A stretch of 36,881 nt of DNA from Candidatus Kaiserbacteria bacterium RIFCSPLOWO2_01_FULL_54_20 (GCA_001783355.1 MFMA01000027.1:12000-48880), one strand, 5' to 3'. Positions 8,165-28,019 are shown, counted from the first letter of the stretch. Numbers and translations are program-made. The notes: generated from the sequence alone by a model not told the origin.

Positions 8165-8167
8165 GGC

Positions 8168-8196: not shown

Positions 8197-8227
8197 CACG
8201 TCGTACCTCTCTTAGGTAGCTTCTCCC

Positions 8228-9976
8228 ATGACACTTCTTCCCGAGCGGCTTTTGAATGTAGCACGGCTCCTGCAAGCGGCATTCGGTGCGTATGCGCTTC
8301 ATATCACACTCATTGCGGTCTTGGGTTTTTTCGCCTCACTTTTAGAGGCGCTCGGTATCAGTGCGGTCATTCCCATTTTCTCATTTGTTACAGGAGGAAG
8401 TGGAGCTGCGGCCGACACGATAACGCACATAATCTCTGGAGTTTTCGCGTATCTGCATATCCCATACACCTTTCGTTTCCTACTTCTTTTCGTGGGAACT
8501 CTTTTTGTTGTCCGTACACTCGCACTCTTCGCCATACAGAACGTCACCGCGCGCATTGTGTTTGGATATGAACGCGACATGCGCAAGAACATGTTCCGGG
8601 TCACATTAATGGCGGACTGGCCGTTCCTTTCTCTGCAGAAGGCAGGACATCTAGATCAGCTTCTTTTAACGAACACAACGAATACGGCGCTTTTTTTTGG
8701 GTTTTTCTCAACGATGGTACTTATTATCACAAAGACCATCGCATATTTGGTGATCGCTATAAACATCTCTCTTCCGGTGGCGCTCCTTTCGCTTCTGGCC
8801 GGCGTTCTTCTTTTTTTTGTTCTCAAGCCGCTTTTCCGCTGGAATAAAGTATTTTCGACGGAAGCCGAAGGCCTCAACCGCTCCGTTGCCCACTACGTTT
8901 CCCAGCACTTAAGTGGTGTGAAGACAGTGAAAGCTCTTGCTGTGGAAGGGCCCGTAGCTCGCACCGCGTCTCGTTATTTCGAAGGGATCCGAAACGTTCA
9001 TGTACGCATCACGACCTTGCGCGGATTTCTTGAAATGGGCGTGCAGTTCGCAGGCCTGGCATTTGTAGCCGGTGTTTTTGCGTACATGTACCGCTCCGGG
9101 AGTTTTAACTTTGCGTCATTTGCTATCATCGTGTACGCCGTGAATCAGATATTTGCACAAGTACAGAGCGCTCAAGTGCAGCTGCATTCGCTGACCTCGA
9201 TGATACCGTATCTTCAGAGCGCGATATCGCACATACGGAGCGCGCGGGAGAGCGGTGAGAGAGAGCATGGCAGCATACAATTCTCGTTCGAGCGTGATAT
9301 AGAGTTTCGGGACGTTTCGTTCTCATATCCGAAACGCACGGGAACACTGGATAACATCTCGTTCCGTGTTCCGCATGGAAAGATCGTTGCCATAGTCGGC
9401 CCGTCCGGCGCGGGCAAGTCCACGATCGCAGACCTTCTTCTACATCTGATCGAACCGTCCAGCGGCAATATCCTGATTGACGGCAGGGACTTGAAAGAAG
9501 TTTCTCTGCATCACTGGCGCAAAGTCGTTGGTTATGTGCCGCAGGAGCCGTTTCTTCTCAACGACACTATCCGGAACAACATCGCATTTTACGACGTCAT
9601 ATCGGACGACGATATGCGTAAATTTGCGGAGCGTGCGAACATACACGATTTCATTGAGACACTGTCGGAAAAGTACGACACTCACATCGGGGACCGCGGC
9701 GTATTTCTCTCTGGTGGTCAGCGTCAGCGTATCGTACTGACGCGGCTTCTCGCGCGGAAGCCGAAACTCCTGGTTCTAGACGAGGCCACAAGCGCGCTCG
9801 ATCCGGAGTCGCAAACCGCTATTCGCAAATCGATCGAAAAACTGCGCGGAGAGGTAACGGTCATAATTATTGCGCACAGTGGCGAAATGCGCGATGCCGC
9901 CGATATCACGATCACTCTCGAGGATGGAAAAGTGCAGAATATTGAGCACCGTTCGCCGAAAGGTGTGGTGATATGA
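8228..9976 (+). CDS. Fused TMD-NBD ABC exporter (MsbA/PglK-like). Candidate flippase or exporter for lipid-linked glycan.
   Basis: 582 aa. N-terminal six-helix-type hydrophobic half. Walker A GPSGAGKST, signature LSGGQRQRI, Walker B LLVLDEATSALD. Confidence 0.9.
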   Translation: MTLLPERLLNVARLLQAAFGAYALHITLIAVLGFFASLLEALGISAVIPIFSFVTGGSGAAADTITHIISGVFAYLHIPYTFRFLLLFVGTLFVVRTLALFAIQNVTARIVFGYERDMRKNMFRVTLMADWPFLSLQKAGHLDQLLLTNTTNTALFFGFFSTMVLIITKTIAYLVIAINISLPVALLSLLAGVLLFFVLKPLFRWNKVFSTEAEGLNRSVAHYVSQHLSGVKTVKALAVEGPVARTASRYFEGIRNVHVRITTLRGFLEMGVQFAGLAFVAGVFAYMYRSGSFNFASFAIIVYAVNQIFAQVQSAQVQLHSLTSMIPYLQSAISHIRSARESGEREHGSIQFSFERDIEFRDVSFSYPKRTGTLDNISFRVPHGKIVAIVGPSGAGKSTIADLLLHLIEPSSGNILIDGRDLKEVSLHHWRKVVGYVPQEPFLLNDTIRNNIAFYDVISDDDMRKFAERANIHDFIETLSEKYDTHIGDRGVFLSGGQRQRIVLTRLLARKPKLLVLDEATSALDPESQTAIRKSIEKLRGEVTVIIIAHSGEMRDAADITITLEDGKVQNIEHRSPKGVVI

Positions 9977-11403
9977 AGGTCTTCCTCATTGGGATCGGGA
10001 GCTTGTTTACCGAGCATATACGCGCGGCAGAGCGGTTAGCGAAAGACCACCAGGTCCTCTATTGGGTACGCCTCGAGGATGTCGTTCCCATGGACACCGC
10101 AAAGTTCCCGGGCACGGTCTTTCACGATTATCGGAATGCGCTTAAAAACATTCCGCCCAAAGAGATGCGAGCGTCCGATTTCGCTCCATGGGGCGCAAAG
10201 GAGATCGCACAGTATTTCGAGACCGAGTCGGAGCTCATGAGCATGATGGACAAATGGTATCCGGATTGGCCGGTCTTGAAGCGAAAAGATTTTTTCTACG
10301 ACCTCTTAAGTTACTGGGGAAGCGTGTTGGATACATATTCTCCGGACGCTATTATCTTTCACGCGCCACCGCACGAGATGTTTAGTTACGTGCTCTACGC
10401 AATAGCTCAGGCAAGAGGCATACGGACACCCATGTTCGACTGTATCCTCGGGCATGACCGCGTGATCTTATATGCCGACTATAAGAAGGGAAATAACACA
10501 CTAGCACGAAAGGCTAAAGCAGAGTTTAAAGACGGATCGGGGTCTCTAAATGACCTTGCGCTTGACTTGCGAGAGTACTACCGGAAAGTCTCCGCATCTC
10601 CAGACCCAACTCCTCCATATGTCGAAGAGTGGAAACTTCAGGCACTCGGATGGGGGAAACTCCGCCGCCGCGCAAAAGCGCTTTTGCCGTTCATTAAAGA
10701 TGGAACGATATTCGAGAGGGCAGCCATGCGATTTTTCAAGTTGCTGAAACCGGGTATTCTTGATGAACAAAAGAAATACGAAAAGTCCGCCGACCTATCG
10801 AAACCGTATGTCTACGCGCCGCTTCATTACCAGCCCGAATGCACGACGAGTCCGCAGGGAGGCATCTTCGTCGACCAGATCCTGATGATAAAGATGCTCG
10901 CGGCGGCCTTGCCGCAGGGCTGGGAGCTGTATGTCAAAGAACATCCGGCTCAACAGCAGGCTCACGGCAACGAATTCACTCCGTATCGGTATCGCGGCTT
11001 CTTCCGTAGCATTGCGGAGCTTCCGAACGTGCGTCTCGTGCCTTCTAGCACGAACACGTTCGAGCTCACCAGATCGTCCAGGGCCGTCGCGACCATCACC
11101 GGCACGGCCGCATGGGAAGCTATTTTGCGCGGCAAGCCGGCGCTCGTCTTCGGGTACCCATGGTTCATGCATGCGCCGGGAATTCTGCGCGTTTCAAGCG
11201 TGAAAGAATGCAAGGAAGCATTCAAGAATATAGAGGGCGGATTTGTGCCCGACGCGAAAATACTTATCAACTACCTTTCCGTCGTCGAGGAAGCGAGTTT
11301 TCGCGGATACACGAGCGGGTACGGCAAGAAGATCGCCGCACTCGATGAAGAGACGGCTATACATGAAATGCACCGCGCACTCGAGGCAGCGCTCGCACAG
11401 TGA
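9973..11403 (+). CDS. KpsS/KpsC-like (Capsule_synth-type) protein. Candidate CMP-ulosonic-acid-dependent glycosyltransferase.
   Basis: 476 aa. PLHYQPE...VKEHP...ITGTAAWEAILRGKPALVFG motifs resemble the capsule polysaccharide biosynthesis family (PLQ-x3-D/E, K-x-HP, GKPV). Clear paralog of 28017..29534. ATGA overlap with the ABC gene. Confidence 0.5.
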   Translation: MKVFLIGIGSLFTEHIRAAERLAKDHQVLYWVRLEDVVPMDTAKFPGTVFHDYRNALKNIPPKEMRASDFAPWGAKEIAQYFETESELMSMMDKWYPDWPVLKRKDFFYDLLSYWGSVLDTYSPDAIIFHAPPHEMFSYVLYAIAQARGIRTPMFDCILGHDRVILYADYKKGNNTLARKAKAEFKDGSGSLNDLALDLREYYRKVSASPDPTPPYVEEWKLQALGWGKLRRRAKALLPFIKDGTIFERAAMRFFKLLKPGILDEQKKYEKSADLSKPYVYAPLHYQPECTTSPQGGIFVDQILMIKMLAAALPQGWELYVKEHPAQQQAHGNEFTPYRYRGFFRSIAELPNVRLVPSSTNTFELTRSSRAVATITGTAAWEAILRGKPALVFGYPWFMHAPGILRVSSVKECKEAFKNIEGGFVPDAKILINYLSVVEEASFRGYTSGYGKKIAALDEETAIHEMHRALEAALAQ

Positions 11404-11426
11404 TCAAAGTTAGAAAAGGTTTCAAC

Positions 11427-12713
11427 ATGAACAGGATGCTAAAAATACTGAACGACCTTACACCCCTGAACAGGGTTTTTTGTTCAAGTGATTATGATAA
11501 GGCTATCGAATACCTTAAAGACATACTGCCATTTAAGGTCATTAGTTATAACGCGGCAGACGAACTTAATGGCTGGGTAATTCCACCAAAATGGGATATT
11601 AAGGAAGCAAAAATCTTAAAGAACGGCAAAGTGCTCTATGACGGTCTTGCACATCCACTTCGTGTAATTTCATTATCAAAGAGCTTTGAGGGCGAAGTCG
11701 ATTCAGAAGAACTCAAACAACATCTTCACTACGATAGCAGAGATAGCAACTCGATTCCCTACCACTTTAGGCAACAATATAGGAGTTGGGATAGGGATTG
11801 GGGTTTTTGTGTCACGAAGAATTTCTTCGATACACTTGAACATGGAAAATATAAAGTGATCATAGAAACAGAAGAATCAGACGGAATCCTTAAAGTTTTA
11901 GATTACACCCATACAGGTTTATTGGAAGAAACGTTTGCATTTGTTGCCCACCTTGACCATCCCGGGATGGCAAATGATGATTTGGCAGGGTGCGCGGTCG
12001 GGGTGGAGCTTTTAAAAAGGCTTTCTAAAAAAAGAACCAAATATTCATATAAACTGCTGTTGGTACAGGAGATAATAGGTTCGGAACACTATTGGGGGAG
12101 GACAAATGCTGGAAATAAGGAAAAAATACTCGAATCCGTTTTCCTCGAAATGTTGGGAACAAAAACGCAATTAGCCTTGCAAGAATCTCTGGGCGCTACA
12201 TCAAACGTAGAACAAGCAATATCAAAAGCAATGGATGTTTCCGGAATATCGTACCGTAGAGGCCCATTCAATAGCATTATTGGTAACGACGAATATATTT
12301 GGGAGGCATATGGGGTACCTATGGCGAGTTTGTCAAGATTCCCCTATCCAGAGTATCACTCAGATCGTGATAATTTTTCTATAATGTCCGAGACAGCTCT
12401 CAATGAAGCGGTGAATGTATTATTGAAAGCTATTGAATACCTCGAATCGTCCACGCTCATTTTTAAGAAATTTCAGGGAAACATATGTTTATCTAATCCC
12501 AAATATGATCTTTATATTGATACGGAACAACCTGCATTTGGGAATATGGCATCTGAGAACGTACAAAAAATGAGGTTACTAGCGGATTTGATCCCAACAT
12601 TGCACCAGCCAACGACTGTCAAAGTTCTTTCTGGCAGAGTGGGGTTACCAGAGATCGATGTTATGACATATTTACAAAAGTGGGTTGAAAAAGGATTAAT
12701 TGAACTTAAATAG
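11427..12713 (+). CDS. COG4310-type aminopeptidase-like domain protein (DUF2172/DUF4910 plus C-terminal winged helix)
   Basis: About 428 aa from the ATG at 11427 (MNRMLKILNDL), which has AAAAGG 9 nt upstream. An alternative GTG at 11400 overlaps the upstream stop. HLDHPGMANDDLAG metal-site-like motif and a C-terminal wHTH-like tail. Markedly lower GC than its neighbours. Confidence 0.55.
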   Translation: MNRMLKILNDLTPLNRVFCSSDYDKAIEYLKDILPFKVISYNAADELNGWVIPPKWDIKEAKILKNGKVLYDGLAHPLRVISLSKSFEGEVDSEELKQHLHYDSRDSNSIPYHFRQQYRSWDRDWGFCVTKNFFDTLEHGKYKVIIETEESDGILKVLDYTHTGLLEETFAFVAHLDHPGMANDDLAGCAVGVELLKRLSKKRTKYSYKLLLVQEIIGSEHYWGRTNAGNKEKILESVFLEMLGTKTQLALQESLGATSNVEQAISKAMDVSGISYRRGPFNSIIGNDEYIWEAYGVPMASLSRFPYPEYHSDRDNFSIMSETALNEAVNVLLKAIEYLESSTLIFKKFQGNICLSNPKYDLYIDTEQPAFGNMASENVQKMRLLADLIPTLHQPTTVKVLSGRVGLPEIDVMTYLQKWVEKGLIELK

Positions 12714-12805
12714 AATAGGAAAATCATTTTCTCCAATGGGGGTAAAGCTTGCTGTCGCACTGGATGGCTGCGCGTCGCAGGCAGGCGTATTCTGATGAAA
12801 TATTG

Positions 12806-12811: not shown

Positions 12812-12817
12812 ACGGCC

Positions 12818-13363
12818 ATGGAAATAAAACCGTTCATTGAGGGGAACCTTATTGACCTTCGACCTCTTTCGGAGGAAGACGTGAACCAGAATTATGTTGA
12901 CTGGCTGAATGACGCCGAGGTGTGCAGGTACAATTCGCATCACGTTTTCCCCTATACGTTAGAGCTTGCGAAGAGATATGTTGCCGAAATGCAGACAAGC
13001 AAATCGGATGTCGCTCTGGCGATAGTTGCCAAAGACAGCGGAAGGCACATCGGCAACATTGCTCTTGAGAATATTAATCCGATAAGCCGATGGGCGGAGA
13101 TCGCAATTATCATTGGTGAGAAGAAGGCCTGGGGGAAAGGGTATGGAACCGAGGCAATGCGACTCATGCTGCGACACGGATTCATGGAGCTAAATTTACA
13201 TCGCATTTGGATGGGAACCTTGTCGGATAACATCGGCATGCAGAAAATAGCAATTGCCCTTGGGTTCACCGAAGAGGGGCGCTCGCGCAAAGAAGAGTTC
13301 AAAGATGGTACATTCCATGACGTGATCCGTTATGGAATCTTGCGCGATGAATTTGTGTCTTAG
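12818..13363 (+). CDS. GNAT N-acetyltransferase (RimL/Acetyltransf_3-like). Candidate PseH-type sugar N-acetyltransferase.
   Basis: 181 aa with a GNAT core (IGNIALENI...KAWGKGYGTEAM). Sits immediately upstream of pseB. The PseH assignment rests on context only. Confidence 0.65.
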   Translation: MEIKPFIEGNLIDLRPLSEEDVNQNYVDWLNDAEVCRYNSHHVFPYTLELAKRYVAEMQTSKSDVALAIVAKDSGRHIGNIALENINPISRWAEIAIIIGEKKAWGKGYGTEAMRLMLRHGFMELNLHRIWMGTLSDNIGMQKIAIALGFTEEGRSRKEEFKDGTFHDVIRYGILRDEFVS

Positions 13364-13420
13364 AGGAGGTCACGTTTTTCTTTGAATAAGTCGAGCTTTT
13401 GTGCTATACCGAACGGCAAT

Positions 13421-14428
13421 ATGGCTCGTCGCTCGCCCAGTAAAAGCCTCACCGTGGGGACCTTTCTGAAAGGGAAAACGATCCTTATTACGGGTGGTAC
13501 AGGTACCTTCGGGCATGCTCTCGTCGCTCGCTTGCTCATAGAGAAGGCAGTCAGGAAAATCATCATTCTAAGCAGGGATGAACTCAAACAAAGTCAGCTA
13601 CAGCATCTGTATCCAAACGAGTCGCGTCTGCGATACTTCTTGGGAGATGTGCGCGATAAGGAGCGCCTGATGCGTGCGTTTCGAGGTGTTGATATAGTCG
13701 TTCACGCGGCGGCGCTCAAGCAAGTGCCTGCGACAGAGTACAATCCGTTTGAAGCCGTTAAGACGAATATAGTTGGAACGCAAAATGTCATAGATGCAGC
13801 CATTGACCAGAAAGTACTAAAGGTTCTATTAGTGTCTTCGGATAAAGCGGTGGAACCTATCAATCTCTATGGCGCGACAAAGATGTGCGCGGAAAAGCTC
13901 TGTGTGGCGGCGAATGTGTACGGAGCAGGGTCTACCGCGCTCAGCGTCATTCGCTATGGCAATGTGATAGGCAGTCGCGGCAGCCTCGTTGAACTTATTG
14001 AAAAGCAGCGCGCGGGCGGGGTTATTACTATCACTGATGGCCGAATGACGCGATTTTGGATAAATATTCATCAGGTTATGGACATTGTTCTCGAGTGCCT
14101 TGATGTCATGAAAGGAGGCGAGATTTTTGTTCCAAAGATGAAAAGTGCCCCGGTGCGGGACGTCATGGAGCTTATCGCTCCCGACTGCAAGATAAAAACA
14201 ATCGGCATCAGGCCGGGAGAGAAGATACACGAAATGCTTATTACGCAATATGAGTGCGGGCGTACGCATGAGCTCGCGCATATGTATGTTATCCGTCCGG
14301 AATTCGGCGCGTATGACCCAGCATGGCTTGCACGAACGCCGGCCATTCCAAAGGATTTCTCGTATGGAAGCGGGAACAAAGATTTCAAGCTGACTGAGGC
14401 AGAAGCGAAGACACTTTTTAAGAGATAG
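13421..14428 (+). CDS. pseB: UDP-N-acetylglucosamine 4,6-dehydratase (inverting), PseB/FlaA1 type
   Basis: Trimmed to the ATG at 13421 (the track start at 13382 is TTG). 335 aa. GKTILITGGTGTFG Rossmann motif and YGATKMCAEK (Y-x3-K). Short CapD-like size typical of PseB. Confidence 0.8.
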   Translation: MARRSPSKSLTVGTFLKGKTILITGGTGTFGHALVARLLIEKAVRKIIILSRDELKQSQLQHLYPNESRLRYFLGDVRDKERLMRAFRGVDIVVHAAALKQVPATEYNPFEAVKTNIVGTQNVIDAAIDQKVLKVLLVSSDKAVEPINLYGATKMCAEKLCVAANVYGAGSTALSVIRYGNVIGSRGSLVELIEKQRAGGVITITDGRMTRFWINIHQVMDIVLECLDVMKGGEIFVPKMKSAPVRDVMELIAPDCKIKTIGIRPGEKIHEMLITQYECGRTHELAHMYVIRPEFGAYDPAWLARTPAIPKDFSYGSGNKDFKLTEAEAKTLFKR

Positions 14429-14431
14429 GCT

Positions 14432-15463
14432 ATGGCGCGGCGGTCTCTACCGGGGAAGAAATCGAAATATGGCGTTGCGATAGTCGGTTGCGGGAAGATA
14501 GGGGCTCTTTTTGAAACGGATGCCCGTCGGGAGAAGCCGGCCAGTCATGCCGGTGCCGTCGCCAAGAATCCTAAGACCGAACTCGCGGCGCTCGTGGACA
14601 CAAACCCCAGGAATCTTGCAACCGCGGGAAAAATGTTCCCGCGCGCGGCGCGCTACGTGTCCCTTACTGCGTGCCTCGCGGGTGAGCGACCGGACATTGT
14701 CGTCATTGCCACGCCGCCTTTGGGGCGCGTCTCCATCGCGGCGGCGTGCGTGAAGGCCAAGGTGAACATGATCGTATGCGAAAAGCCGCTTGCGGCGAAC
14801 GTGCGGGAAGGGCGCATGATCGCGCACCTGCTCGCAGGTTCGCACACGACGTTCGTACTCAACTACCAGCGGCGCTTCTCGCCCCTTTTCAAGCGTGTGC
14901 GGGCGGATATCAAGCGGGGCGCGATCGGCCATCTCGAGCAGGTAACCTGCTTCTACTCCAACGGGCTCTTCAACAACGGCGGACACATCGTTGATGCGCT
15001 CCGGTACCTGATCGCGGACAAGATCGTTGCCGTTCAGGCGCTCCGCAATGCAAAGAACACAACGCATCCCGTCGGCGACATGAACGTCGACGCGCTCCTC
15101 ACGACGACAGGCGGTGTTACGATCGCACTTCAAAGCTTCGATCAACATGCGTATGCGATACATGACATCCATATCATGGGAAAGAAAGGCGCGATCACGC
15201 TCACGGATTTCGGCCAGCGCGGCATGTGGCGGTCCGTCGGCCACTCGAAATTCGCCGGTATACGCGCATTGTCTGTACGACGGGGGAGAGAGCGGAGGGT
15301 GCCTTTGAGCGCGACGCGTGATGCACTTCTGCACGTCATCCGGTGTTTCGAGCGCAACGTTCGGCCGGAGAGTGGGGTCGAAAGCGGCATCGCCGTCTTG
15401 CGCGTGCTCGAAGCCCTGAAGAAAAGCGCGAACGCGGGCGGAAAAAAAATCCGGGTACAATAA
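14432..15463 (+). CDS. Gfo/Idh/MocA-family NAD(P)-dependent oxidoreductase
   Basis: 343 aa. N-terminal VAIVGCGKIG Rossmann motif and CEKPLA motif typical of the family. Confidence 0.8.
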   Translation: MARRSLPGKKSKYGVAIVGCGKIGALFETDARREKPASHAGAVAKNPKTELAALVDTNPRNLATAGKMFPRAARYVSLTACLAGERPDIVVIATPPLGRVSIAAACVKAKVNMIVCEKPLAANVREGRMIAHLLAGSHTTFVLNYQRRFSPLFKRVRADIKRGAIGHLEQVTCFYSNGLFNNGGHIVDALRYLIADKIVAVQALRNAKNTTHPVGDMNVDALLTTTGGVTIALQSFDQHAYAIHDIHIMGKKGAITLTDFGQRGMWRSVGHSKFAGIRALSVRRGRERRVPLSATRDALLHVIRCFERNVRPESGVESGIAVLRVLEALKKSANAGGKKIRVQ

Positions 15464-15467
15464 CGGT

Positions 15468-16769
15468 ATGAAGAGAAAAAAGGCGCACACCTCGGAGTCG
15501 AAGCTTGCGCTCCGCGGGGGTACGCCGGTCCTCAAGCAGCCGTATCCACCCGTCTACACGGTAGGGAAGCGGGAGATCGTAGAGGCCATTAAGGTTCTGA
15601 AGGAGGGGCCGCTCTCCGATTTCCTCGGTGTTGCAGGAGAATATTTTTTGGGGGGGAAACGCGTGCGTTCGCTGGAACATGCGTTCACGAAAAAATTCAA
15701 GGTGAAGCACGCAGTCTCATTCAACTCCGCGACGACGGCGCTCCACGGCGCGATAGTCACGCTCGGCATCGGGCCGGGGGACGAAGTCATTCTGCCTCCG
15801 TACACGATGTCGGCGTCGGCAATGGCGGTCCTCATGAACGGGGCCGTGCCTGTCTTTGCGGACATTGACGAGATGACCTTCTGCATCGATGTCGAGTCTG
15901 CTCGTACACGCATCACCAAACATACGAAAGCTATTATGGCGGTGAACTTGTTCGGCCAAGCGGCCGACTTTGAACCGCTCCTTGCGCTCGCGAGAGAGCA
16001 CAACATCAAGATCATCGAGGACAACGCGCAGGCACCCGCCGCGAAATGGCGCGGAAGGTACACGGGAACCATCGGGGATATCGGCGTATTTAGTTTCAAT
16101 TTTCACAAGACTATGCAATCGGGCGAGGGTGGAGTGCTTGTAACGAACAACGACGGCTACGCCCTTCGCGCACAACTGTGCCGCAATCATGGGGAGTCGG
16201 TCGTCGACGGCATGTCCGCGTACGACGGCGGGCCCGTTTTCGGAAGTAATTACCGGATGACGGAACTGACTGCCGCGATAGCGGAAGTACAGCTGTCCCG
16301 TCTTGATTTTCTCAATGCAAAGAATCAGGCGCTCGTGCGGTATCTATCAAAACAACTCTCCGCAATTCCGGGACTCACACTTCCGTATGTGGCATCCGGA
16401 AACAAGCACGTCTATTTTGCGTACGTCATAAAAGTGGATGAAAAGAAGCTGGGCATTTCGCGCGACCGTCTCGTAGAGGCGATGCGGGCGGAAGGATTTC
16501 CGATGTCGCGCGGCTATCAGAAGCCGCTCTATCTGTACAAGCTGTTTCAGGAGCAGCAGGCATTCAACAATACGCATTTTCCTTTCAAGAGCGAGGGGTA
16601 CGACGGCGCTCCGGATTACTCAAAAGGCATCTGTCCCGTTGCCGAGCGACTGTATGAAAAAGAATTAACAATGACGCAGATCTGTCAACATCCGCGGACG
16701 AAGAAACACATCGATCTCTTTGTGCAGGCGCTTAAAAAAGTGCTCGCGCATAAAAACGAACTGCAATGA
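15468..16769 (+). CDS. DegT/DnrJ/EryC1/StrS-family PLP aminotransferase (second copy, not the PseC type)
   Basis: 433 aa. FNSATTALH and FSFNFHKTMQSGEGGVLVTNN (PLP Lys) motifs. Confidence 0.85.
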   Translation: MKRKKAHTSESKLALRGGTPVLKQPYPPVYTVGKREIVEAIKVLKEGPLSDFLGVAGEYFLGGKRVRSLEHAFTKKFKVKHAVSFNSATTALHGAIVTLGIGPGDEVILPPYTMSASAMAVLMNGAVPVFADIDEMTFCIDVESARTRITKHTKAIMAVNLFGQAADFEPLLALAREHNIKIIEDNAQAPAAKWRGRYTGTIGDIGVFSFNFHKTMQSGEGGVLVTNNDGYALRAQLCRNHGESVVDGMSAYDGGPVFGSNYRMTELTAAIAEVQLSRLDFLNAKNQALVRYLSKQLSAIPGLTLPYVASGNKHVYFAYVIKVDEKKLGISRDRLVEAMRAEGFPMSRGYQKPLYLYKLFQEQQAFNNTHFPFKSEGYDGAPDYSKGICPVAERLYEKELTMTQICQHPRTKKHIDLFVQALKKVLAHKNELQ

Positions 16770-16830
16770 ATCCCGCTCGTTCAGTCCGGTCGGTATGCAT
16801 CGCTGCTATTACCAACGTAAAAAGGGCGGG

Positions 16831-17823
16831 ATGAAAGTCCTTTTCAGTGCCAACGATGCGGGCGGCGCGAATGCAATTGCGCCCGTTATTGCCTCTCTCG
16901 CTGGAAAAGGCGCAGAGCTCCACGGAGCGCTGAGCGGTCCGGCGCAAGATATTTTTGCCGCATCCGGCATACCGTTTACCGCCGGATTCTCCGCTTCGCC
17001 AGAGATATTTGTCGCCGGAACGAGCGCGGGGGACACGCCCGATAAGCGCATCATGCGCGAGCTTACGGGGACGCCGAGCCTGTACGTGCTTGATTTCTGG
17101 CTTAATTACTGGCAGAGATTTTCAACAACAGGAAAAAAAGATTTTGCGTACCTTCCGACACGCATCTGTGTGATGGATGAGATTGCAAAAGGGGAAATGA
17201 TTGCTGAAGGGTTCCCACCAGAGCGGCTCATTGTTACAGGCAATCCGCATTTCGATCACTTTGCCGATGCAATCGAGCGCGCAGACGAAGAGGCCGGGCG
17301 AATATTGTTCATTTCACAGCCGCTCCGCGATATCGCTCGCATGCAGGGGTATTCGGGCGCCGCGTACGATGAGTACGCGTCGCTCAGTGACGTCGTGCAA
17401 GCGCTCGAATCAGTGCCGGAACAATTCTACGTATCGATACGTTTGCATCCGAAAGAGTCGGACGAAAAGTACGCAGCATACATAGGGTCGCGCGTGCGCT
17501 GGGCTCCGGAATCCACCATTGAGGGGGCCATTTCGAGATCGGGACTCGTCGTCGGCATGTCGTCTCCGGTATTGATGCAGGCCGCGGCGGCCGGCAAACG
17601 CGTAGTAAGTTACGAGCCGGGGCTTGCGGGTGCCGACAGCTTGGTGAGCAACCGTTGCGGCGTGACGCGGCGATTGGACACTCCCGCCGGGCTTGCGGCG
17701 GAATTCAGCGACTATGCCGCCGGCAAGCCGTCGCCCACCACGGAAGACTTCAGGAAATTCTGGCCGCAGGGAGCTACGGAGCGCGTAGTTGCCGAAGTGT
17801 ATGCACTTGCGGTGAAAAAGTGA
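16831..17823 (+). CDS. Rossmann/GT-B-like protein of unknown function. It occupies the slot where a PseG-type nucleotide-sugar hydrolase would be expected.
   Basis: Trimmed to the ATG at 16831 (MKVLFSANDAGGAN...) with AAAGGG upstream. VTGNPHFD and RLHPKE motifs are reminiscent of the epimerase_2/GT-B folds. No confident family call. Confidence 0.35.
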   Translation: MKVLFSANDAGGANAIAPVIASLAGKGAELHGALSGPAQDIFAASGIPFTAGFSASPEIFVAGTSAGDTPDKRIMRELTGTPSLYVLDFWLNYWQRFSTTGKKDFAYLPTRICVMDEIAKGEMIAEGFPPERLIVTGNPHFDHFADAIERADEEAGRILFISQPLRDIARMQGYSGAAYDEYASLSDVVQALESVPEQFYVSIRLHPKESDEKYAAYIGSRVRWAPESTIEGAISRSGLVVGMSSPVLMQAAAAGKRVVSYEPGLAGADSLVSNRCGVTRRLDTPAGLAAEFSDYAAGKPSPTTEDFRKFWPQGATERVVAEVYALAVKK

Positions 17824-17836
17824 TACAAGTTACCCT

Positions 17837-18982
17837 ATGAAGACGATTCCTTATTCAACACAAGACATCAATGAGGCCGACATCAGGGCGGTGACGCGCG
17901 TTCTGCGTTCGCGCTGGCTCACTCAGGGACCCGCAGTTGAACGCTTCGAGAATGCGGTCGCGAAGAAAGTCGGTGCGAAGTTTGCGGTCGCGTTTAATTC
18001 CGGAACCGCGGCGCTTCACGCAGCCTACTTTGCTGCAGGGGTAAAGCAGGGAAATGAGGTAATCGTACCCGCTCTCACGTTTGCGGCCACGGCAAATGCC
18101 GCGCTCTATCTTGGCGCCACTCCCGTCTTCGCGGACTCTGATATGCATACGGGGAATATGAGCGTCGCCGACGCGTGCAAAAAGATAACCAACAGAACAA
18201 AAGCGATTGTGCCGGTGGATTACGGCGGCAGGCCGGCAGATTTGCGCGAGTTCCGTGCGCTTGCAAAGAAGCACAAGCTGGTCCTTATTGAAGATGCCGC
18301 GCAGGCGCTCGGCGCCACGTACCGGGGAAAGCCAGTCGGTACGCAGGCCGACATGACCATGTTCAGTTTCCATCCGGTGAAATCAATTACTACCGGAGAG
18401 GGCGGTGCCATCGTGACCGATAACAAGAAGTACAAAGATCTACTGAAGCTGTTTCGCAGCCATGGAATCAGCAAGGATGCGGGCACGTTCATCGTAAAGA
18501 GGGGACGCGGTGCGTGGTATCAGGAGATGCAGGTGCTTGGATTCAATTACCGCATGCAGGAAATGTCCGCCGCTCTCGGGGAAAGTCAGTTGAAGCGCCT
18601 AGATTCTTTTATAGCCAAGCGTTGCATTGCGGCACAGCGCTACGGAAAATTACTCAAGGATATTCCCGGACTTGTCCTGCCTCCTGACGAGCGACCTCAA
18701 GAGCAGTCGGCGTGGCACCTGTATCCGTTACGGCTCATACCCGCCATGGTGCATCGCCGCGACGAAATTCTTGCCAAGCTCCGCACAGCGGGCATCGGCG
18801 CGCAGGTTCATCATGTGCCGGTCCACCTGCATCTGTTTTACGAAAACTTGGGTTATAAAAAGGGACTCTGCCCCGACGCGGAAGCTTTTGTGAATTCAGA
18901 AATATCAATCCCGCTGTTTCCCGCCATAACTGCAAAACAGCAGGTATATATAGCTGAAGCCTTGCGGAAAATAATCGGTTAA
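17837..18982 (+). CDS. pseC: UDP-4-amino-4,6-dideoxy-N-acetyl-beta-L-altrosamine transaminase (PseC-type DegT aminotransferase)
   Basis: 381 aa. N-terminal IPYSTQDINEADIRAVTRVLRSRWLTQGPAVERFE and FSFHPVKSITTGEGGAIVTDN motifs are typical of PseC. Confidence 0.8.
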   Translation: MKTIPYSTQDINEADIRAVTRVLRSRWLTQGPAVERFENAVAKKVGAKFAVAFNSGTAALHAAYFAAGVKQGNEVIVPALTFAATANAALYLGATPVFADSDMHTGNMSVADACKKITNRTKAIVPVDYGGRPADLREFRALAKKHKLVLIEDAAQALGATYRGKPVGTQADMTMFSFHPVKSITTGEGGAIVTDNKKYKDLLKLFRSHGISKDAGTFIVKRGRGAWYQEMQVLGFNYRMQEMSAALGESQLKRLDSFIAKRCIAAQRYGKLLKDIPGLVLPPDERPQEQSAWHLYPLRLIPAMVHRRDEILAKLRTAGIGAQVHHVPVHLHLFYENLGYKKGLCPDAEAFVNSEISIPLFPAITAKQQVYIAEALRKIIG

Positions 18983-18989
18983 GAACAGT

Positions 18990-19601
18990 ATGAAAGCCCC
19001 GGATGCAATCGTCGTACTCTCAGGCGGCATTAAGCAAATCGCTGGCCGCTGGGTGAGTACTGACTTTACCGACCATGATGATAGGCAGGGGGCTCCTGGC
19101 GCTTCACTGAGGGTTGCGGCTGCCACGATACTCAGCAAGCGATATCCTTCGGCTCGGATCATAGCGAGCGGAGGCGCGGGCTATGATGTACCGGAAGACG
19201 CTCCAAAAAATCGTCCGCTCTTGTGCGAAATATTGAAAGCGGAGCTTGTCGCTGCAGACGTCCCCGAGGAACGTATTGAGCTTGAGAACGCATCCAACAC
19301 AACGTATCAACAGCTGCAACAGCTGGAGATTCTTATCCGACACAGATCATTTCGCAGCGTTGCCATTATTTCAAGCCGCTGGCACCTGCCGCGGATCGAG
19401 ACCATGCTCAATGTAAAATTCTCGGCATTACGAGCGAGCGTCGGGCTTGTGTCCGCCGAGGAGATATTGATTGAGGCGGACCCGGCGCGTTGGGGGCCCA
19501 TGATCGCGAAAGCATACGCCAGCGCATTTATGGCAGAAAGAATGGCCAACGAGAATCGGGGCATTTCGCAGATAAAAAATGGCACATATCAATTTCGATA
19601 A
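18990..19601 (+). CDS. DUF218 / YdcF-family protein
   Basis: 203 aa. AIVVLSGG start, SNTTYQQL and ISSRWHLPR motifs are characteristic of DUF218. Confidence 0.65.
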   Translation: MKAPDAIVVLSGGIKQIAGRWVSTDFTDHDDRQGAPGASLRVAAATILSKRYPSARIIASGGAGYDVPEDAPKNRPLLCEILKAELVAADVPEERIELENASNTTYQQLQQLEILIRHRSFRSVAIISSRWHLPRIETMLNVKFSALRASVGLVSAEEILIEADPARWGPMIAKAYASAFMAERMANENRGISQIKNGTYQFR

Positions 19602-19622
19602 ATCTCAATTACACTTGACTCC

Positions 19623-20279
19623 ATGAGGAAACTGAAGATAAGCATTCTTAACGACAGCCCGCGCAGCTGGTTTGTACCTTACGGGCAGGAGCTCGTTCTG
19701 AAGCTGAGAGAGCGCGGTCACGAAGTGGCCAGGATAGAAAATACGCAGGAATTACCACGCGGCGACATCGCTTTTTTCCTCAGTTGCGAACAAATCATCG
19801 GCAAAGACGTGCGGGACCGTAACACGAACAATATCGTTATTCACGCGAGCGCCCTGCCGCAAGGAAAGGGATGGTCCCCGCTTGCCTGGCAGATCCTGGA
19901 GGGAAAAAATGAGATTACGCTTACGATGTTTGAAGCGGCAGACGACGTTGACGCAGGAGACGTATTCGCGACAGAAACGATTACATTTGATGGTCATGAA
20001 CTGATTGACGAAATGCGGCAAAAGGAAGGAGAAGCAATCATCAGTCTCGCGCTCCGATTCGTTGACGCATATCCGAATGTCACCAGTCGTCCGCAGGAGG
20101 GGAAAGAGAGTATATACCCCAAACGCGCACCGAAAGACAGCGAGCTTGACCCAAAAAAGCCGCTTACCGAACTGTTCAACCAGTTGCGAGTCGCCGATAA
20201 TGAACGGTATCCGGCGTTCTTTACCCATCGCGGGCACACCTATGTGCTGAAGATATTCAAGAAAGACAATGAAAAATAA
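19623..20279 (+). CDS. Formyltransferase-fold protein (Formyl_trans_N-like) with a non-canonical active-site motif
   Basis: 218 aa. VIHASALPQGKG...DDVDAGDV matches the H-x-S-L-L-P-x-x-R/K-G and Asp motifs. The Asn of the canonical N-x-H is replaced by Val (NNIVIH; His codon at 19842-19844). Confidence 0.6.
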   Translation: MRKLKISILNDSPRSWFVPYGQELVLKLRERGHEVARIENTQELPRGDIAFFLSCEQIIGKDVRDRNTNNIVIHASALPQGKGWSPLAWQILEGKNEITLTMFEAADDVDAGDVFATETITFDGHELIDEMRQKEGEAIISLALRFVDAYPNVTSRPQEGKESIYPKRAPKDSELDPKKPLTELFNQLRVADNERYPAFFTHRGHTYVLKIFKKDNEK

Positions 20280-21318
20280 AAGTATGAAAGTAAGCGGGCG
20301 CGCCGTAGGAGCGGGTCATCCGGCCCTCATCGTCGCCGAGCTCTCCGGCAACCACAACCATGATATAAAACGTGCCATAAAGATAATAGATGCCGCGGCC
20401 GAAGCGGGTGCCGATGCGATAAAACTTCAGACGTATACGCCGGATACACTCACTATTAAGTCCGCCACCAAGCCTTTTCGCGTAACGTGGAAAGGGAAGC
20501 GCCGCACCCTGTACGATTTATACGAGGAAGCCTACACACCGTGGGAGTGGCACAAGGAACTATTTGCGCACGCAAAAAAACGCGGCCTTATCTGTTTTTC
20601 CACCCCGTTTGATAATTCTGCCGTGGATTTTCTGGAGAAACTCGGACAACCGATATACAAAGTTGCCTCATTTGAGATCATCGATATCCCGCTCCTTGAG
20701 CGCATCGGCAAAACAAAAAAGCCGGTCATACTGTCGCGGGGCATGGCATCAGTAGAAGAAATTCGTTTAGCTCTGAAGACGTTGCGAAAGTTCGGAACCA
20801 AAGATATTGTCCTTCTGCACTGCATAAGTGCGTATCCTGCGCGCCCGAAAGACATGCACCTTTCCACCATTCCCGACATGCGCACGCGCTTCGGCGTTAG
20901 TGTCGGGCTTTCCGACCACACGCTCGGAATAGATGTCGCTATTGCCGCCGTTGCTCTCGGCGCCGTCATTATTGAAAAGCATCTCACGCTCCGACGCAAA
21001 GATGGCGGGCCTGATTCGAGTTTCTCCCTGGAACCGAACGAATTTGCAGAAATGGTGCGCGGGGTGCGAACGGTTGAGGATGCGCTCGGGCGACCCTCAT
21101 ATTCCGAGAGCACGTACGAAAAAAAGAATATTGTTTTTCGCAAATCTCTTTTCGTCGTGCGTGACATGAAGAAAGGGGAAACGTTCACGCCGGATAACGT
21201 ACGCTCCATTAGGCCCGGGAACGGACTCGCGCCCAAGTTCTACCGTTCAGTCGTAGGGAAACGTGCCGCTCGCGATATCTCCCGCGCGACCCCTTTGCAC
21301 AATGGTTTGATAGCGTAG
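20269..21318 (+). CDS. pseI: Pseudaminic acid synthase (NeuB family with C-terminal SAF domain)
   Basis: 349 aa. LIVAELSGNHNHD, ADAIKLQTYT and SDHTLG motifs, followed by a C-terminal SAF-like segment. An alternative ATG at 20284 avoids the 11-nt overlap with the upstream gene. Confidence 0.8.
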   Translation: MKNKSMKVSGRAVGAGHPALIVAELSGNHNHDIKRAIKIIDAAAEAGADAIKLQTYTPDTLTIKSATKPFRVTWKGKRRTLYDLYEEAYTPWEWHKELFAHAKKRGLICFSTPFDNSAVDFLEKLGQPIYKVASFEIIDIPLLERIGKTKKPVILSRGMASVEEIRLALKTLRKFGTKDIVLLHCISAYPARPKDMHLSTIPDMRTRFGVSVGLSDHTLGIDVAIAAVALGAVIIEKHLTLRRKDGGPDSSFSLEPNEFAEMVRGVRTVEDALGRPSYSESTYEKKNIVFRKSLFVVRDMKKGETFTPDNVRSIRPGNGLAPKFYRSVVGKRAARDISRATPLHNGLIA

Positions 21319-21331
21319 TATTGAAAATATC

Positions 21332-22021
21332 ATGAGCGATCATTCTGTACTCGTAGTTATTCCGGCCAAGGCGCGCTCTACGCGCATTCCGGGAAAGAAT
21401 CTGAAAGACTTGTGCGGCAAGCCGATGATGGCCTACATCATAGAAACGGCCAAAGGAGCGAAAGGTGTGGACCGCGTTGTTGTGACGACAGAATCCGAGG
21501 AGATTAAGAAGGTTGCCGAACGGTACGGTGCGGAAGTTCCGTTTCTCCGTCCGCCGGAACTCACCTCGGACACGGCGACTTCCCAAGAAGTGGTCTCGCA
21601 CGCGCTTTCCGCACTCAAAGCGCACGATGGGTACGACCCAGAGTACGTACTCTTGCTCTACCCAACATCGCCCCTACTCTCGCGCGAGCGGGTTGAGCAG
21701 GCCATCGCTCTCGCGATCGAGAAAGATGCTGATTCGGTGGTGAGCGGCTACTACGATAAGGGGCATTATTGGATAGAAGATAAAGGTGCGTGGAAAAGAC
21801 TGTACCCGGTGCACCCGGTCAATAGCCAGTACCAGGACCCGCTCTTCAAAGAGAACGGCGCGATATACATGACGCGCGCTTTGGCACTGCAGAAGCAAAA
21901 GCAATTGCTCGCCGATCGTGTAGAGGTGCTTCTGATGAATCCTGACGAGAATATTGACGTTGATTATCCGGAGGATTTCGCACGCGTTGAAGCTACCCTT
22001 CGCGATAGGCGCGGAACATAA
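21332..22021 (+). CDS. pseF: CMP-pseudaminic acid synthetase / acylneuraminate cytidylyltransferase family
   Basis: 229 aa. VIPAKARSTRIPGKNLKDLCGKPMMAY N-terminal motif of the CTP_transf_3 family. Directly follows pseI. Confidence 0.8.
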   Translation: MSDHSVLVVIPAKARSTRIPGKNLKDLCGKPMMAYIIETAKGAKGVDRVVVTTESEEIKKVAERYGAEVPFLRPPELTSDTATSQEVVSHALSALKAHDGYDPEYVLLLYPTSPLLSRERVEQAIALAIEKDADSVVSGYYDKGHYWIEDKGAWKRLYPVHPVNSQYQDPLFKENGAIYMTRALALQKQKQLLADRVEVLLMNPDENIDVDYPEDFARVEATLRDRRGT

Positions 22022-24062: not shown

Positions 24063-24070
24063 GCGCTTTT

Positions 24071-26202: not shown

Positions 26203-26211
26203 AATATGGCC

Positions 26212-26220
26212 ATTCTAGCA
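26212..26220 (-). promoter_or_regulatory. Extended -10 promoter candidate TGcTAGAAT, 9 nt upstream of the ATG at 26202
   Basis: The minus strand reads TGCTAGAAT-GGCCATATT-ATG, in the 39-bp spacer between the cytidylyltransferase and the aminotransferase. This implies a 2-3 nt or absent leader. Confidence 0.4.
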
Positions 26221-26241
26221 ACTACGCAGGCCCGGTGCGAC

Positions 26242-28007: not shown

Positions 28008-28019
28008 ACTGTCATTATG
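28005..28019. promoter_or_regulatory. Back-to-back leaderless promoter/start module shared by two divergent genes
   Basis: The + strand reads CATACT-GTCATT-ATG (28017). The - strand reads CATAAT-GACAGT-ATG (28007). Each start codon lies inside the other gene's -10-like hexamer. The two ATGs are separated by 9 bp. Confidence 0.4.

Follow-up and report, generated by a model that had tools for sequence, protein, structure and literature searches.

What is the function of two related genes that lie in a single gene island, each next to a set of genes for ulosonic-acid synthesis? The island is found in a 36,881-nucleotide stretch of DNA, which we refer to as the window, from Candidatus Kaiserbacteria bacterium RIFCSPLOWO2_01_FULL_54_20, an uncultured bacterium with a very small genome. 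A preliminary description of the window had proposed that the two genes, here called A and B, encode the transferases for two CMP-linked ulosonic acids, with one enzyme possibly serving each sugar. The genes that bear on this proposal are the following (domain names from Pfam, with NCBIfam also used for the Pse-type module).

6252-7388, − strand: GT4 glycosyltransferase
7385-8302, − strand: FkbM-type methyltransferase
8228..9976, + strand: ABC exporter of 582 aa with fused membrane and ATPase domains (ABC_membrane, ABC_tran)
9973..11403, + strand: gene A, encoding a soluble, basic (pI 8.7), predicted GT-B protein of 476 aa with a PF05159-type C-terminal domain
11400..12713, + strand: DUF4910/M28 aminopeptidase-like gene, overlapping the stop of A (GTGA)
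12818..22021, + strand: Pse-type module, in the order GNAT, PseB, GFO oxidoreductase, DegT, a 367-aa GT-B-like ORF, PseC, DUF218, formyltransferase-like, PseI and PseF
22149..28007, − strand: second module, with NeuB fused to an AP_endonuc_2 barrel, SDR, class-III aminotransferase, CMP-Kdo-synthetase-like cytidylyltransferase and methyltransferase
28017..29534, + strand: gene B, encoding a soluble, basic (pI 9.2), predicted GT-B protein of 505 aa with a PF05159-type C-terminal domain
30639-31436: small cytidylyltransferase-like/cupin gene
31452..33656, + strand: Wzy_C (O-antigen-ligase/PglL-type) membrane protein with TPR repeats

One of the two genes does stand beside each ulosonic-acid region, as had been claimed. 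Gene A precedes the Pse genes by 1.4 kb on their strand, and it shares stop/start overlaps with both of its neighbors, its start being overlapped by the ABC exporter gene (ATGA). Gene B and the second NeuB module diverge, with 9 bp between the start codon of B and the start of the module (the public gene call places the start of B at 28038, which gives a protein of 498 aa). The Pse-type module is the probable donor supply for A and the second module that for B. In the former, PseC and PseI scored above the NCBIfam cut-offs, PseB fell just below (400.8 vs 407.75) and PseF matched in part. A canonical PseG was not recognized in the window with Pfam or NCBIfam; the 367-aa ORF (16720-17823), which matches Epimerase_2 and TIGR04396 weakly, is a possible substitute for it. 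The GT4 and FkbM genes are divergent from the ABC-A pair. The DUF4910/M28 gene recurs in four related loci.

The two reading frames and their collinear motifs are as previously described, and the kinship of the encoded proteins is evident at several levels. A and B are 25% identical over 384 residues (BLASTP, E 3e-20), and their family alignments match with probability 100 and E 1.7e-43 over 333 columns in a profile-profile comparison (hhalign). The likeness to the Capsule_synth family that had been noted was also upheld, in that A and B scored 32.3 and 33.6 bits against PF05159, above the curated gathering score of 20 bits, with matches limited to profile positions ~175-280 of 310, a third of the model. 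A and B are the only PF05159 matches in the whole 652-kb genome, and most homologs in both families carry a precomputed match to this profile. The sole sequence relative of A and B in the PDB is KpsC, which was matched with E ~1e-4 by the single sequences and with E 3.5e-7 (A) and 1.4e-10 (B) by the family profiles; the B profile matched WbbB (GT99) as well, with E 0.027. These results support the placement of A and B, on sequence grounds, in the Capsule_synth/KpsC-KpsS superfamily, where their group forms a divergent branch among the known ulosonic-acid transferases of the KpsS1/KpsC type, with GT107, GT99, GT118 and GT140 of CAZy as relatives. Named public records show the branch to be rich in bacteria of the candidate phyla radiation (CPR, Patescibacteria). 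A phylogeny of 55 family members puts A and B in separate clades (SH-aLRT support of 98-100), so that their paralogy reflects an old split and not a recent duplication. The N-terminal domains of A and B have almost nothing in common, and conservation between the clades is confined to residues of the C-terminal domain, as is expected of enzymes with a common donor type and differing acceptors.

A GT-B fold had been expected of both proteins, and the AlphaFold models (pLDDT 92.6 for A and 92.0 for B; pTM 0.90) are GT-B folds, each with a full six-strand N-terminal alpha/beta domain and a helical insertion of ~100 residues. No 19-residue segment of A reached transmembrane-level hydropathy in a hydropathy scan. 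Foldseek matched the models to GT-B proteins only. The highest target-normalized TM-scores of the A model, 0.36-0.42, were to KpsC and WbbB, whereas neither protein was among the top 50 structural matches of the B model, which were generic GT-B proteins. Identity to the solved relatives is 13-15%.

The conserved C-terminal domain of A and B carries the donor-side signature (H/Q)xxxE ... Q ... KEHP ... R ... GxxxWE ... KP ... FG, the elements of which map as follows (B in the 505-aa form).

10819..10839, + strand: PLHYQPE motif of A (residues 283-289), with E289 (10837-10839) as putative nucleophile
10933..10947, + strand: VKEHP motif of A (residues 321-325), with H324 as the HP histidine; aligned to VKVHP of KpsC
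11095..11139, + strand: ITGTAAWEAILRGKP block of A (residues 375-389), nucleotide-binding region; aligned to VTSQYGFEALLAGKP of KpsC
28974..28994, + strand: PLHLEPE motif of B (residues 320-326), with E326 (28992-28994) aligned with the nucleophile Asp165 of Thermosulfurimonas dismutans KpsC-C
29088..29102, + strand: VKEHP motif of B (residues 358-362), with H361 as the HP histidine
29226..29270, + strand: ISGTAGWEATLFGKP block of B (residues 404-418)

The last block is followed by FG in both proteins (residues 393-394 of A). Because the B profile ("fpLhlePE") was aligned by HMMER to the 6mgd sequence "VPGQVESD" with the B Glu on KpsC Asp165, and because PLHYQPE of A aligns with PLHLEPE of B in the A-B profile alignment, E289 of A and E326 of B are the putative counterparts of the Asp in the KpsC QxxxD motif (Asp165/Asp160). 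Asp165 of KpsC is the proven catalytic nucleophile (PMC10148158). The QxxxD motif with its defining Asp is absent from A and B, the aligned residue being Glu in 100% of 374 homologs (120 of A, 121 of B and 133 distant representatives), including the B family alignment, where the invariant residue is E319 in the 498-aa numbering. Four positions before this Glu, His is found in 63-69% and Gln in 14-28% of the sequences. Conservation of the HP histidine, which aligns with KpsC H194, is 100% among A homologs and 98% among B homologs, and that of E382 of A is 97-100% within each homolog group. The spacing between E289 and the HP histidine of A is 35 residues, compared with 34 in KpsC (PMC10148158). 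We found no acidic residue in the N-terminal domain that is common to the A and B clades, and identified no counterpart of the general base Glu66 of KpsC-N; each clade has its own invariant N-terminal Glu residues (E85 in A; E79 and E105 in B, 498-aa numbering).

In KpsC and WbbB, the HP histidine protonates the CMP leaving group. By analogy, the HP histidine of A and B would assist departure of CMP, and the invariant Glu would stand in for the nucleophile Asp of KpsC and WbbB. The retention of a carboxylate at this position suggests that the mechanism may have been kept, and with Glu in place of Asp, transfer would probably be a double displacement via a covalent enzyme-sugar intermediate, with retention of configuration. 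We put the chances of such a retaining mechanism with a Glu nucleophile at about even, since the family-defining Asp is replaced and no counterpart of the N-terminal general base was found.

Across relatives the family tracks NeuB-type pathways. Among 401 genomes of the same class, NeuB was present in 36 of the 37 that carry the family and in 80 of the 364 others, although the compared genomes are related to one another and such counts overstate independence. In 60 related loci that were fetched, nearly all A- or B-family genes had a NeuB, cytidylyltransferase or PseB/PseC gene within a few kb. Gene A is usually beside PseB-PseC: a PseB gene of 53-62% identity is directly downstream in seven loci and within 2 kb in three more. 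The neighbors of B in relatives are an FkbM methyltransferase gene, which adjoins it in 8 of 17 B loci, a GT4 gene, that of the window type lying within 3 kb in 10 of 17, and a CMP-sugar module. A nonulosonic-acid module thus accompanies these genes in the window, in the 60 related loci and beside the nearest B orthologs; for the two nearest A orthologs, this is less clear. Taken together, we consider it very probable that both A and B are CMP-ulosonic-acid transferases, and our main reading, to which we would give a probability of roughly 70%, is that they are anciently diverged members of a large uncharacterized branch of KpsS/KpsC-like (PF05159) ulosonic-acid glycosyltransferases. Most likely they would attach nine-carbon sialic-acid-like sugars to a surface glycan.

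The assignment of one transferase to each sugar is another matter. The orthologs nearest to B, two genes with 77% and 64% identity, each stand last in an unfused form of the second module (NeuB/AP_endonuc_2/aminotransferase/SDR/cytidylyltransferase/methyltransferase), and this, together with the local layout, makes a split plausible here. It is neither a rule among relatives nor established. The tightest partner of A is the ABC exporter and not a Pse gene: of 18 assessable loci, 15 have the exporter immediately upstream of A. The exporter takes the same position in L069 and L072, two loci in which a GT4←FkbM←B-type cluster faces ABC→A, so that the B-type gene is the immediate divergent neighbor of ABC-A. 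Downstream of the closest A orthologs stand GFO-DegT-GNAT genes and not PseB, and many A loci adjoin PseB/PseC-like genes of only 36-47% identity. We put use of the second-module sugar by B at slightly better than even, and use of a Pse-type sugar by A at slightly short of it. The broader claim of two pathways and two transferases is incomplete, because contig C16 carries a third NeuB module with a different candidate transferase, a TagF/BFO_1060-like protein of 630 aa.

One could envision that A and B are both nonulosonic-acid transferases without being divided between the sugars, and that they draw on the same or overlapping donors to modify one glycan at two positions or acceptors, with both modules feeding either enzyme. 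In three genomes, including G018, which is one complete contig, A and B are accompanied by only one NeuB match; the arrangement in the closest A loci points to a single assembly set made up of A, B, FkbM, GT4 and ABC; the two proteins have wholly different N-terminal (acceptor) domains but common donor-side residues; and three further genomes have tandem A-A duplicates. We nevertheless think that this is unlikely. At least two NeuB matches were found in 10 of the 13 genomes that have both A and B, compared with one in most genomes of a single type, and the two closest B orthologs are embedded in the second module. In addition, the Pse and Leg transferases of Tannerella are closely related and do not cross-complement (PMC5420450), which indicates that donor specificity is usual in such enzymes.

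Three other explanations depart further from our main reading of A and B as members of a KpsS/KpsC-like branch. The two proteins might act as KpsS and KpsC do, with a first ulosonic acid placed on a membrane lipid and then a poly-ulosonate linker that primes a capsule-like polymer for the ABC transporter. KpsS and KpsC are indeed both PF05159 proteins encoded with an ABC exporter (PMC12887879), and A and B occur together in 13 of the 37 family-positive genomes, usually in one island with an ABC gene. We regard this as improbable, since A without B (8-10 genomes) and B without A (5-7 genomes) rule out an obligate pair, the ABC exporter, a fused half-transporter, is of the ABCB/PglK type and not a KpsM/KpsT-type pair, general Pfam scans of the main ORFs of the window returned no KpsE/KpsD-type name, and a Wzy_C-type ligase is present. 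It is still less probable that one or both proteins are GT-B-fold nucleotide-sugar hydrolases or hydrolyzing 2-epimerases of the PseG, NeuC or LegG type that fill the PseG gap. This idea draws on the missing canonical PseG and on the lowest Foldseek E-values of both models, which were to UDP-GlcNAc 2-epimerases, but the TM-scores of those matches (0.2-0.3) reflect generic GT-B similarity, neither Pfam nor NCBIfam gave an Epimerase_2 (PF02350) or PseG match for A or B, and the sequence signal, including the HP motif, points to the CMP-dependent KpsC family. The 367-aa ORF of the Pse operon is, moreover, the better PseG substitute, and genomes with B only keep complete sugar modules of their own. 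Hardly credible, finally, is the view that A and B are TagF/TagB-like phosphotransferases for CDP-glycerol or another CDP-alditol that build a teichoic-acid-like polymer, even though TagF enzymes, too, are GT-B-like and have a cytidine nucleotide as donor, a TagB-like region is present in the nonulosonic-acid transferases of Tannerella (PMC5420450), and the small cytidylyltransferase-like/cupin gene is nearby. The preliminary description had named a TagF-like assignment as the outcome that would count against it. Neither A nor B was matched by PF04464 (Glyphos_transf) with E values of up to 1 allowed, contig C16 carries the one PF04464-like frame of the genome, TagF structures were absent from the top 50 fold matches, and the family tracks NeuB and not glycerol-phosphate genes.

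We envisage that A and B would work at the cytoplasmic face of the membrane, where the GT4 enzymes of the island would build a lipid-linked oligosaccharide. A would add the pseudaminic-acid-type residue made by the downstream operon, and B the sugar that the second, divergently transcribed NeuB module makes. The glycan would be flipped by the PglK-like ABC exporter, which is translationally coupled to A, and passed by the Wzy_C-TPR protein to a surface acceptor, either a protein or a wall polymer. From its context, the exporter is a likely flippase for lipid-linked glycan; its best match among solved bacterial half-transporters is PglK (5c73; E 5e-55, full length). The Wzy_C-TPR protein, whose gene recurs in eight related islands, is a candidate for the enzyme that delivers the completed glycan to the final acceptor. 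In this genome, which is 72% complete, a search for Maf genes gave no match, in agreement with the earlier remark that a Maf-type gene is lacking.

The closest functional analog of the role proposed for A and B, in moving a sugar from a CMP donor to a growing glycan unit, is KpsS1 of Acinetobacter baumannii (GT118). The proposed precedent of a KpsS-like Pse transferase has since become firm, as KpsS1 is a proven retaining Pse transferase according to Walklett et al. 2024, as cited in PMC12887879. Where PF05159 proteins are encoded next to nonulosonic-acid modules, the sugar that they transfer is Pse, Aci or 8eLeg (PMC4487303), and KpsS1, KpsS2 and Gtr59, all PF05159 proteins, resemble A and B in being encoded next to such a module. 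KpsS1, however, belongs to Wzy-dependent capsule loci of Proteobacteria, whereas A and B are found in Gram-positive-like CPR bacteria, and A, unlike KpsS1, is coupled to a PglK-like ABC exporter. PglK, the lipid-linked oligosaccharide flippase of Campylobacter jejuni, aligns with the 582-aa ABC protein (residues 29-570 to 20-561), and both are encoded inside a glycan assembly locus, although, taken half by half, multidrug-type ABCB proteins give equally good scores.

KpsC and KpsS of Escherichia coli group 2 capsules (GT107) and WbbB of Raoultella terrigena (GT99) are retaining β-Kdo transferases, and KpsC and WbbB provide the only solved structures with sequence similarity to A and B. A and B have in common with them the HP motif, the GxEA...GKP...FG block, a carboxylate at the position of the QxxxD nucleophile and, by their models, a GT-B-derived fold. 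A and B differ from them in having Glu for the nucleophile Asp and mostly His for Gln, and the genomic context, with PseI and NeuB modules, makes nine-carbon sugars the likely donors in place of Kdo. The N-terminal domain, reduced in GT99 and GT107 (PMC12887879), is complete in the A and B models. For their biological role, a good model is offered by the Pse- and Leg-derivative transferases of Tannerella forsythia protein O-glycosylation (Tanf_01245/TFUB4_00887; NF046086, BFO_1060 family), which are genetically proven, cap the protein-linked O-glycan, carry an HP motif and are encoded just downstream of the CMP-sugar locus (PMC5420450). Membership of A and B in NF046086 was rejected, as their scores (17.8 bits for A, 21.4 bits for B) fall short of the 200-bit cut-off; the 630-aa C16 protein matches better at 34.6 bits, itself far below the cut-off. 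The finding of A and B is therefore useful rather than surprising, in that they represent a known type of enzyme in a large, unstudied branch.

Genes A and B, two candidate CMP-nonulosonic-acid transferases, lie in a glycan island of 36.9 kb on contig C27 of a genome of 652 kb (57 contigs, 72% complete). Scans with Pfam and NCBIfam gave the following gene map of the window.

First genes of the map: GT4, GT4, LamG/pilin-like protein (4794-6242)
6252-8302, minus strand: GT4 and FkbM methyltransferase
8228-9976, plus strand: ABC exporter
9973-11403, plus strand: gene A, intact ORF of 476 aa
11400-12713, plus strand: DUF4910/M28 aminopeptidase-like gene (the ABC exporter, A and this gene are joined by stop/start overlaps, ATGA and GTGA)
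12818-22021, plus strand: Pse module; besides the Pse genes proper, it holds GNAT, GFO oxidoreductase, second DegT, DUF218 and formyltransferase-like genes
22149-28007, minus strand: module 2, the second NeuB module, with NeuB fused to AP_endonuc_2, SDR, class-III aminotransferase, cytidylyltransferase and methyltransferase
28017-29534, plus strand: gene B, intact ORF of 505 aa (public gene call from 28038, 498 aa), starting 9 bp from the start codon of module 2
After B: Gmd, cytidylyltransferase-like/cupin fusion, Wzy_C-TPR membrane protein, SecA

By the NCBIfam equivalog cut-offs, PseC and PseI of the Pse module scored above, PseB just under, and PseF was partial. The ABC protein gave a full-length match (E 5e-55) to PglK, the Campylobacter lipid-linked oligosaccharide flippase, and no other bacterial half-transporter appears in its list of 60 matches. 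The DUF4910/M28 gene, which overlaps the stop codon of A, lies in the lowest-GC stretch of the window (41% at 12001-13000) and is found again in the related islands G180, G187, G339 and L072.

That A and B are paralogs, as the preliminary description had proposed, is borne out by a homology well past chance: the proteins are 25% identical over 384 residues (BLASTP, E 3e-20), and their family alignments (54 and 52 sequences) match each other with a probability of 100 and E 1.7e-43 (hhalign). Every one of the collinear motifs claimed for the pair was found in both proteins. They are the only PF05159 matches in the genome, and the HMM check placed each of them past the gathering score of that family, with a match confined to the model's C-terminal third. 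Both are basic (pI 8.7 for A and 9.2 for B), and a membrane-spanning hydrophobic segment is absent from both. The only solved structures with sequence similarity to A and B are KpsC modules (E about 1e-4 for the single sequences, 3.5e-7 and 1.4e-10 for the A and B family profiles), and the B family profile also matched WbbB (GT99) at E 0.027. In NCBIfam, the matches (to BFO_1060, a transferase family of Tannerella, and to TIGR04396) were all far below threshold. Clustered at 50% identity, the family numbers 7,859 clusters with an E limit of 1e-3 and 1,202 with one of 1e-30. Its carriers in named public records are mostly uncultured CPR bacteria; the named homologs of A and B belong almost all to the Patescibacteria/CPR (Kaiserbacteria, Magasanikbacteria, Niyogibacteria, Giovannonibacteria) and are annotated as hypothetical in all cases.

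AlphaFold models built on the family alignments (pLDDT 92.6 for A and 92.0 for B, pTM 0.90) consist of two alpha/beta domains and a helical insertion of about 100 residues. The Foldseek matches of both models in the PDB were GT-B proteins, as the preliminary description had expected of the predicted structures. For A, the best target-normalised TM-scores were those to KpsC and WbbB (0.36-0.42), and the lowest E-values were those to UDP-GlcNAc 2-epimerases (TM 0.2-0.3); for B, the best 50 matches were generic GT-B proteins. Judged from these models, the structural tie of A and B to KpsC and WbbB in particular is modest.

In KpsC and WbbB, the nucleophile that becomes covalently linked to Kdo is the Asp of an invariant QxxxD, the departing CMP is protonated by the HP-motif His, and the general base is an N-terminal Glu (PMC10148158; PMC12887879). 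H324 of A and H361 of B (B numbered on the 505-aa form) align unambiguously with the KpsC HP histidine. The segment fpLhlePE of the B-family profile was aligned to VPGQVESD of Thermosulfurimonas dismutans KpsC-C (6mgd), which places the family Glu (E289 of A, E326 of B) on the nucleophile Asp165 and the family His on the Gln; PLHYQPE of A is aligned with PLHLEPE of B. The spacing from Glu to His is 35 residues in A and B and 34 in KpsC-N. When the A profile was compared with the KpsC-N fragment 148-262, which was pieced together, partly from a quoted peptide, only the HP-to-FG block aligned. Conservation was determined in an alignment of 427 sequences (A homologs, B homologs, 133 distant representatives and the class sample). 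The Glu is present in 100% of the A homologs, the B homologs and the distant representatives, and the HP His in 100%, 98% and 72%, respectively; Q302, K322, E323, R339 and E382 are conserved as well. Position −4 from the Glu is occupied by His in 63-69% and by Gln in 14-28%. Because the Glu is invariant and His or Gln stands at −4, the signature of the family is (H/Q)xxxE instead of QxxxD, with a carboxylate retained, though as Glu. From its place in these alignments, the conserved Glu of A and B may act as the nucleophile. The conservation comparison found no residues common to the A and B clades in the N-terminal domain, and the combination of shared C-terminal with unlike N-terminal domains fits a common donor chemistry and different acceptors.

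Three other readings of the two proteins were weighed. A TagF-like assignment, which had been named beforehand as an example of one that would overturn the transferase reading, is rejected: the TagF profile, PF04464, gave no match to A or B in the Pfam scan at E up to 1, and there was no TagF structure among the best fold matches. A PseG/NeuC-like hydrolase would share a fold likeness with A and B, but the likeness is generic, no profile matches, Epimerase_2 included, and a better PseG candidate exists at 16720-17823, so we judge this reading unlikely. The 367-aa ORF at that position (plus strand), inside the Pse operon, has weak matches to Epimerase_2 (E 0.003) and TIGR04396 (E 1e-3), and is the most probable substitute at the PseG step, for which no gene was recognised; its homologs recur in related Pse clusters (G008, L069 and L072). 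An obligate pair of the KpsS/KpsC type is rejected in view of the often solitary occurrence of A and B and of the PglK/ABCB type of the ABC protein.

As candidate nonulosonic-acid transferases, A and B can be set against NeuB in a sample of 401 genomes of the same class. The A/B family occurs in 37 of these genomes and NeuB in 116 (about 29%), often in 2-4 copies. NeuB is present in 36 of the 37 family-positive genomes and in 80 of the 364 remaining ones, an association that is a strong tendency and not a statistic, because the sampled genomes are related to one another. The 80 NeuB genomes that lack any A/B-type gene must be served by other transferases. In a maximum-likelihood tree of 55 members, the A clade (SH-aLRT 100) and the B clade (98) are separate, and three more clades are closer to B than to A. 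A third clade (G010, G031, G146, G180, G289 and G339; for example, G180:C3:24139-25626) is about 25% identical to A and B; its genes adjoin PseI-type NeuB/DUF218 or PseC and sometimes lie beside an ABC exporter, in A's place. Two small additional clades come from G274/G326/G224 and G047/G282.

The window proteins were mapped onto 60 regions around family matches. An ABC exporter lies directly upstream of the A-type gene at 15 of the 18 assessable loci, and a true PseB (53-62% identity) directly downstream at 7 loci and within 2 kb at 3 others. For B-type genes, an FkbM methyltransferase adjoins at 8 of 17 loci, a homolog of the window's minus-strand GT4 lies less than 3 kb away at 10 of 17, and a PseF-like cytidylyltransferase is found 1.4-4.5 kb upstream at 12 of 17, divergent save at one locus, followed further out by a NeuB of another type than PseI. 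The two orthologs nearest to B (77% and 64% identity; loci L067 and L071) are the last gene of an unfused version of module 2, directly after the SDR; since this order is unlike that of the window, yet the linkage is kept, these loci are the best evidence that B serves module 2. In the modules of these loci (L067:2738-9960 and L071:1336-9921), which include an aldo-keto reductase, two genes, one for NeuB (319 aa) and one for the AP_endonuc_2 barrel (272-281 aa), stand several kb apart; in the window (22149-24077), unlike in its nearest relatives, they are fused into one 642-aa protein. In the island of the closest relative, an AbiEii toxin-family gene (L067:13117-13860) follows two ORFs further than the B ortholog, about 1.6 kb downstream.

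The two orthologs nearest to A (75% and 63%; L069 and L072) stand in the order GT4←FkbM←B-type facing ABC→A→GFO→DegT→GNAT, so that FkbM and ABC flank the B-type gene (L069:4804-11431, L072:4614-11434). The window (6252-11403) retains GT4←FkbM facing ABC→A with no B between, and B lies 20 kb off beside module 2. This displacement suggests that the island was rearranged.

The preliminary description had further proposed that each paralog serves one sugar. The local layout, the B orthologs and the NeuB counts favour this proposal: of 13 genomes in which both A and B occur, 10 show two or more NeuB matches, and most single-type genomes have one. The relatives, however, provide exceptions. A and B occur with a single NeuB in G018 (a complete single contig), G271 and G323; it is the exporter, rather than a sugar gene, that accompanies A most constantly; A neighbours a B-type gene in its closest loci; and a strict count gives no 1:1 rule of transferases to NeuB genes. 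The organism's own genome shows three modules and three candidate transferases, which suits the idea behind the proposal but not its number of two. The third NeuB module lies outside the window, on a single strand of another contig (C16:92-9760), and encodes, in order, a 630-aa TagF/BFO_1060-like protein, a GFO oxidoreductase, DegT, a 342-aa ORF, CTP_transf_3, GT2, NeuB and an ABC exporter. This NeuB is broken only by a 22-N run (2582-2603), the exporter is a paralog of that of the window, and the 342-aa ORF has an 'RLHPKD' motif and no family match. The 630-aa protein, which is weakly similar to TagF (20 bits) and BFO_1060 (34.6 bits), is a candidate for the third transferase. A search of the genome, as far as it is complete (72%), found no Maf gene, which upholds the earlier statement; the sialyltransferase families GT42, GT52 and GT80 gave no match, a result that is uninformative because control genomes were equally silent. 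Overall, the original observation is confirmed and its interpretation is supported in part, and the likeliest sugar would be that of the Pse type for A and that of module 2 for B.

From the observed family, fold, conserved residues and synteny we infer, along with this sugar assignment, a mechanism. A and B would be cytoplasmic, membrane-peripheral CMP-nonulosonic-acid transferases. Their catalysis would depend on the HP His and the conserved Glu and would probably be retaining, and the nonulosonic residues would go onto a lipid-linked glycan that the GT4 enzymes assemble. The PglK-like exporter would then flip the finished lipid-linked glycan, and the Wzy_C-TPR protein would pass it onward. 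On the boldest reading, to which we give a probability of roughly one in four, the A and B clades would be new GT families for nine-carbon sialic-acid-like sugars, with Glu instead of Asp as the nucleophile, and would belong, alongside a PglK-like flippase of their own and a Wzy_C-TPR ligase, to a surface (protein) glycosylation system that is widespread in the CPR/Patescibacteria and decorates the cells with nonulosonic acids. If this is true, the nonulosonic-acid coat could matter for the attachment of episymbionts to their hosts or for evasion of them. As the missing transferases, A and B would explain how minimal cells spend about 5% of the genome on a sugar coat. For Pse, Leg and the other sialic-acid-like sugars of bacteria, few transferases are known; they are wanted as tools for glycan synthesis and as markers from which a genome's surface structures can be predicted. 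An A/B-type assignment would yield concrete targets for expression, and with Glu in place of Asp, nature would provide a test of the covalent intermediate that has been proposed for KpsC and WbbB.

No paper was found in the literature on nonulosonic-acid transferases in CPR bacteria, nor anything relevant on Patescibacteria or Saccharibacteria with pseudaminic, sialic or nonulosonic acid. PF05159 proteins have been reported with nonulosonic-acid modules in Acinetobacter (KpsS1, KpsS2 and Gtr59) and in other bacteria (PMC4487303). The enzyme type and its link to nonulosonic-acid loci are already in the literature, and the advance over it is incremental. KpsS1 is a retaining Pse transferase and the founder of GT118, as described in PMC12887879, and KrkA, the founder of GT140, is a similarly divergent Kdo transferase (PMC12887879); the Pse and Leg transferases of Tannerella cap a protein O-glycan (PMC5420450). 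A and B differ from GT99 and GT107 in lacking the QxxxD motif as it is written for those families, and they fall far below the cut-off for BFO_1060 of Tannerella. In their manner of working, they may resemble the KpsS1-type, KrkA and Tannerella transferases, and we would class them as new sister families of large size with 7,859 representative clusters at E up to 1e-3, KpsS1 (GT118) being compared by its description.
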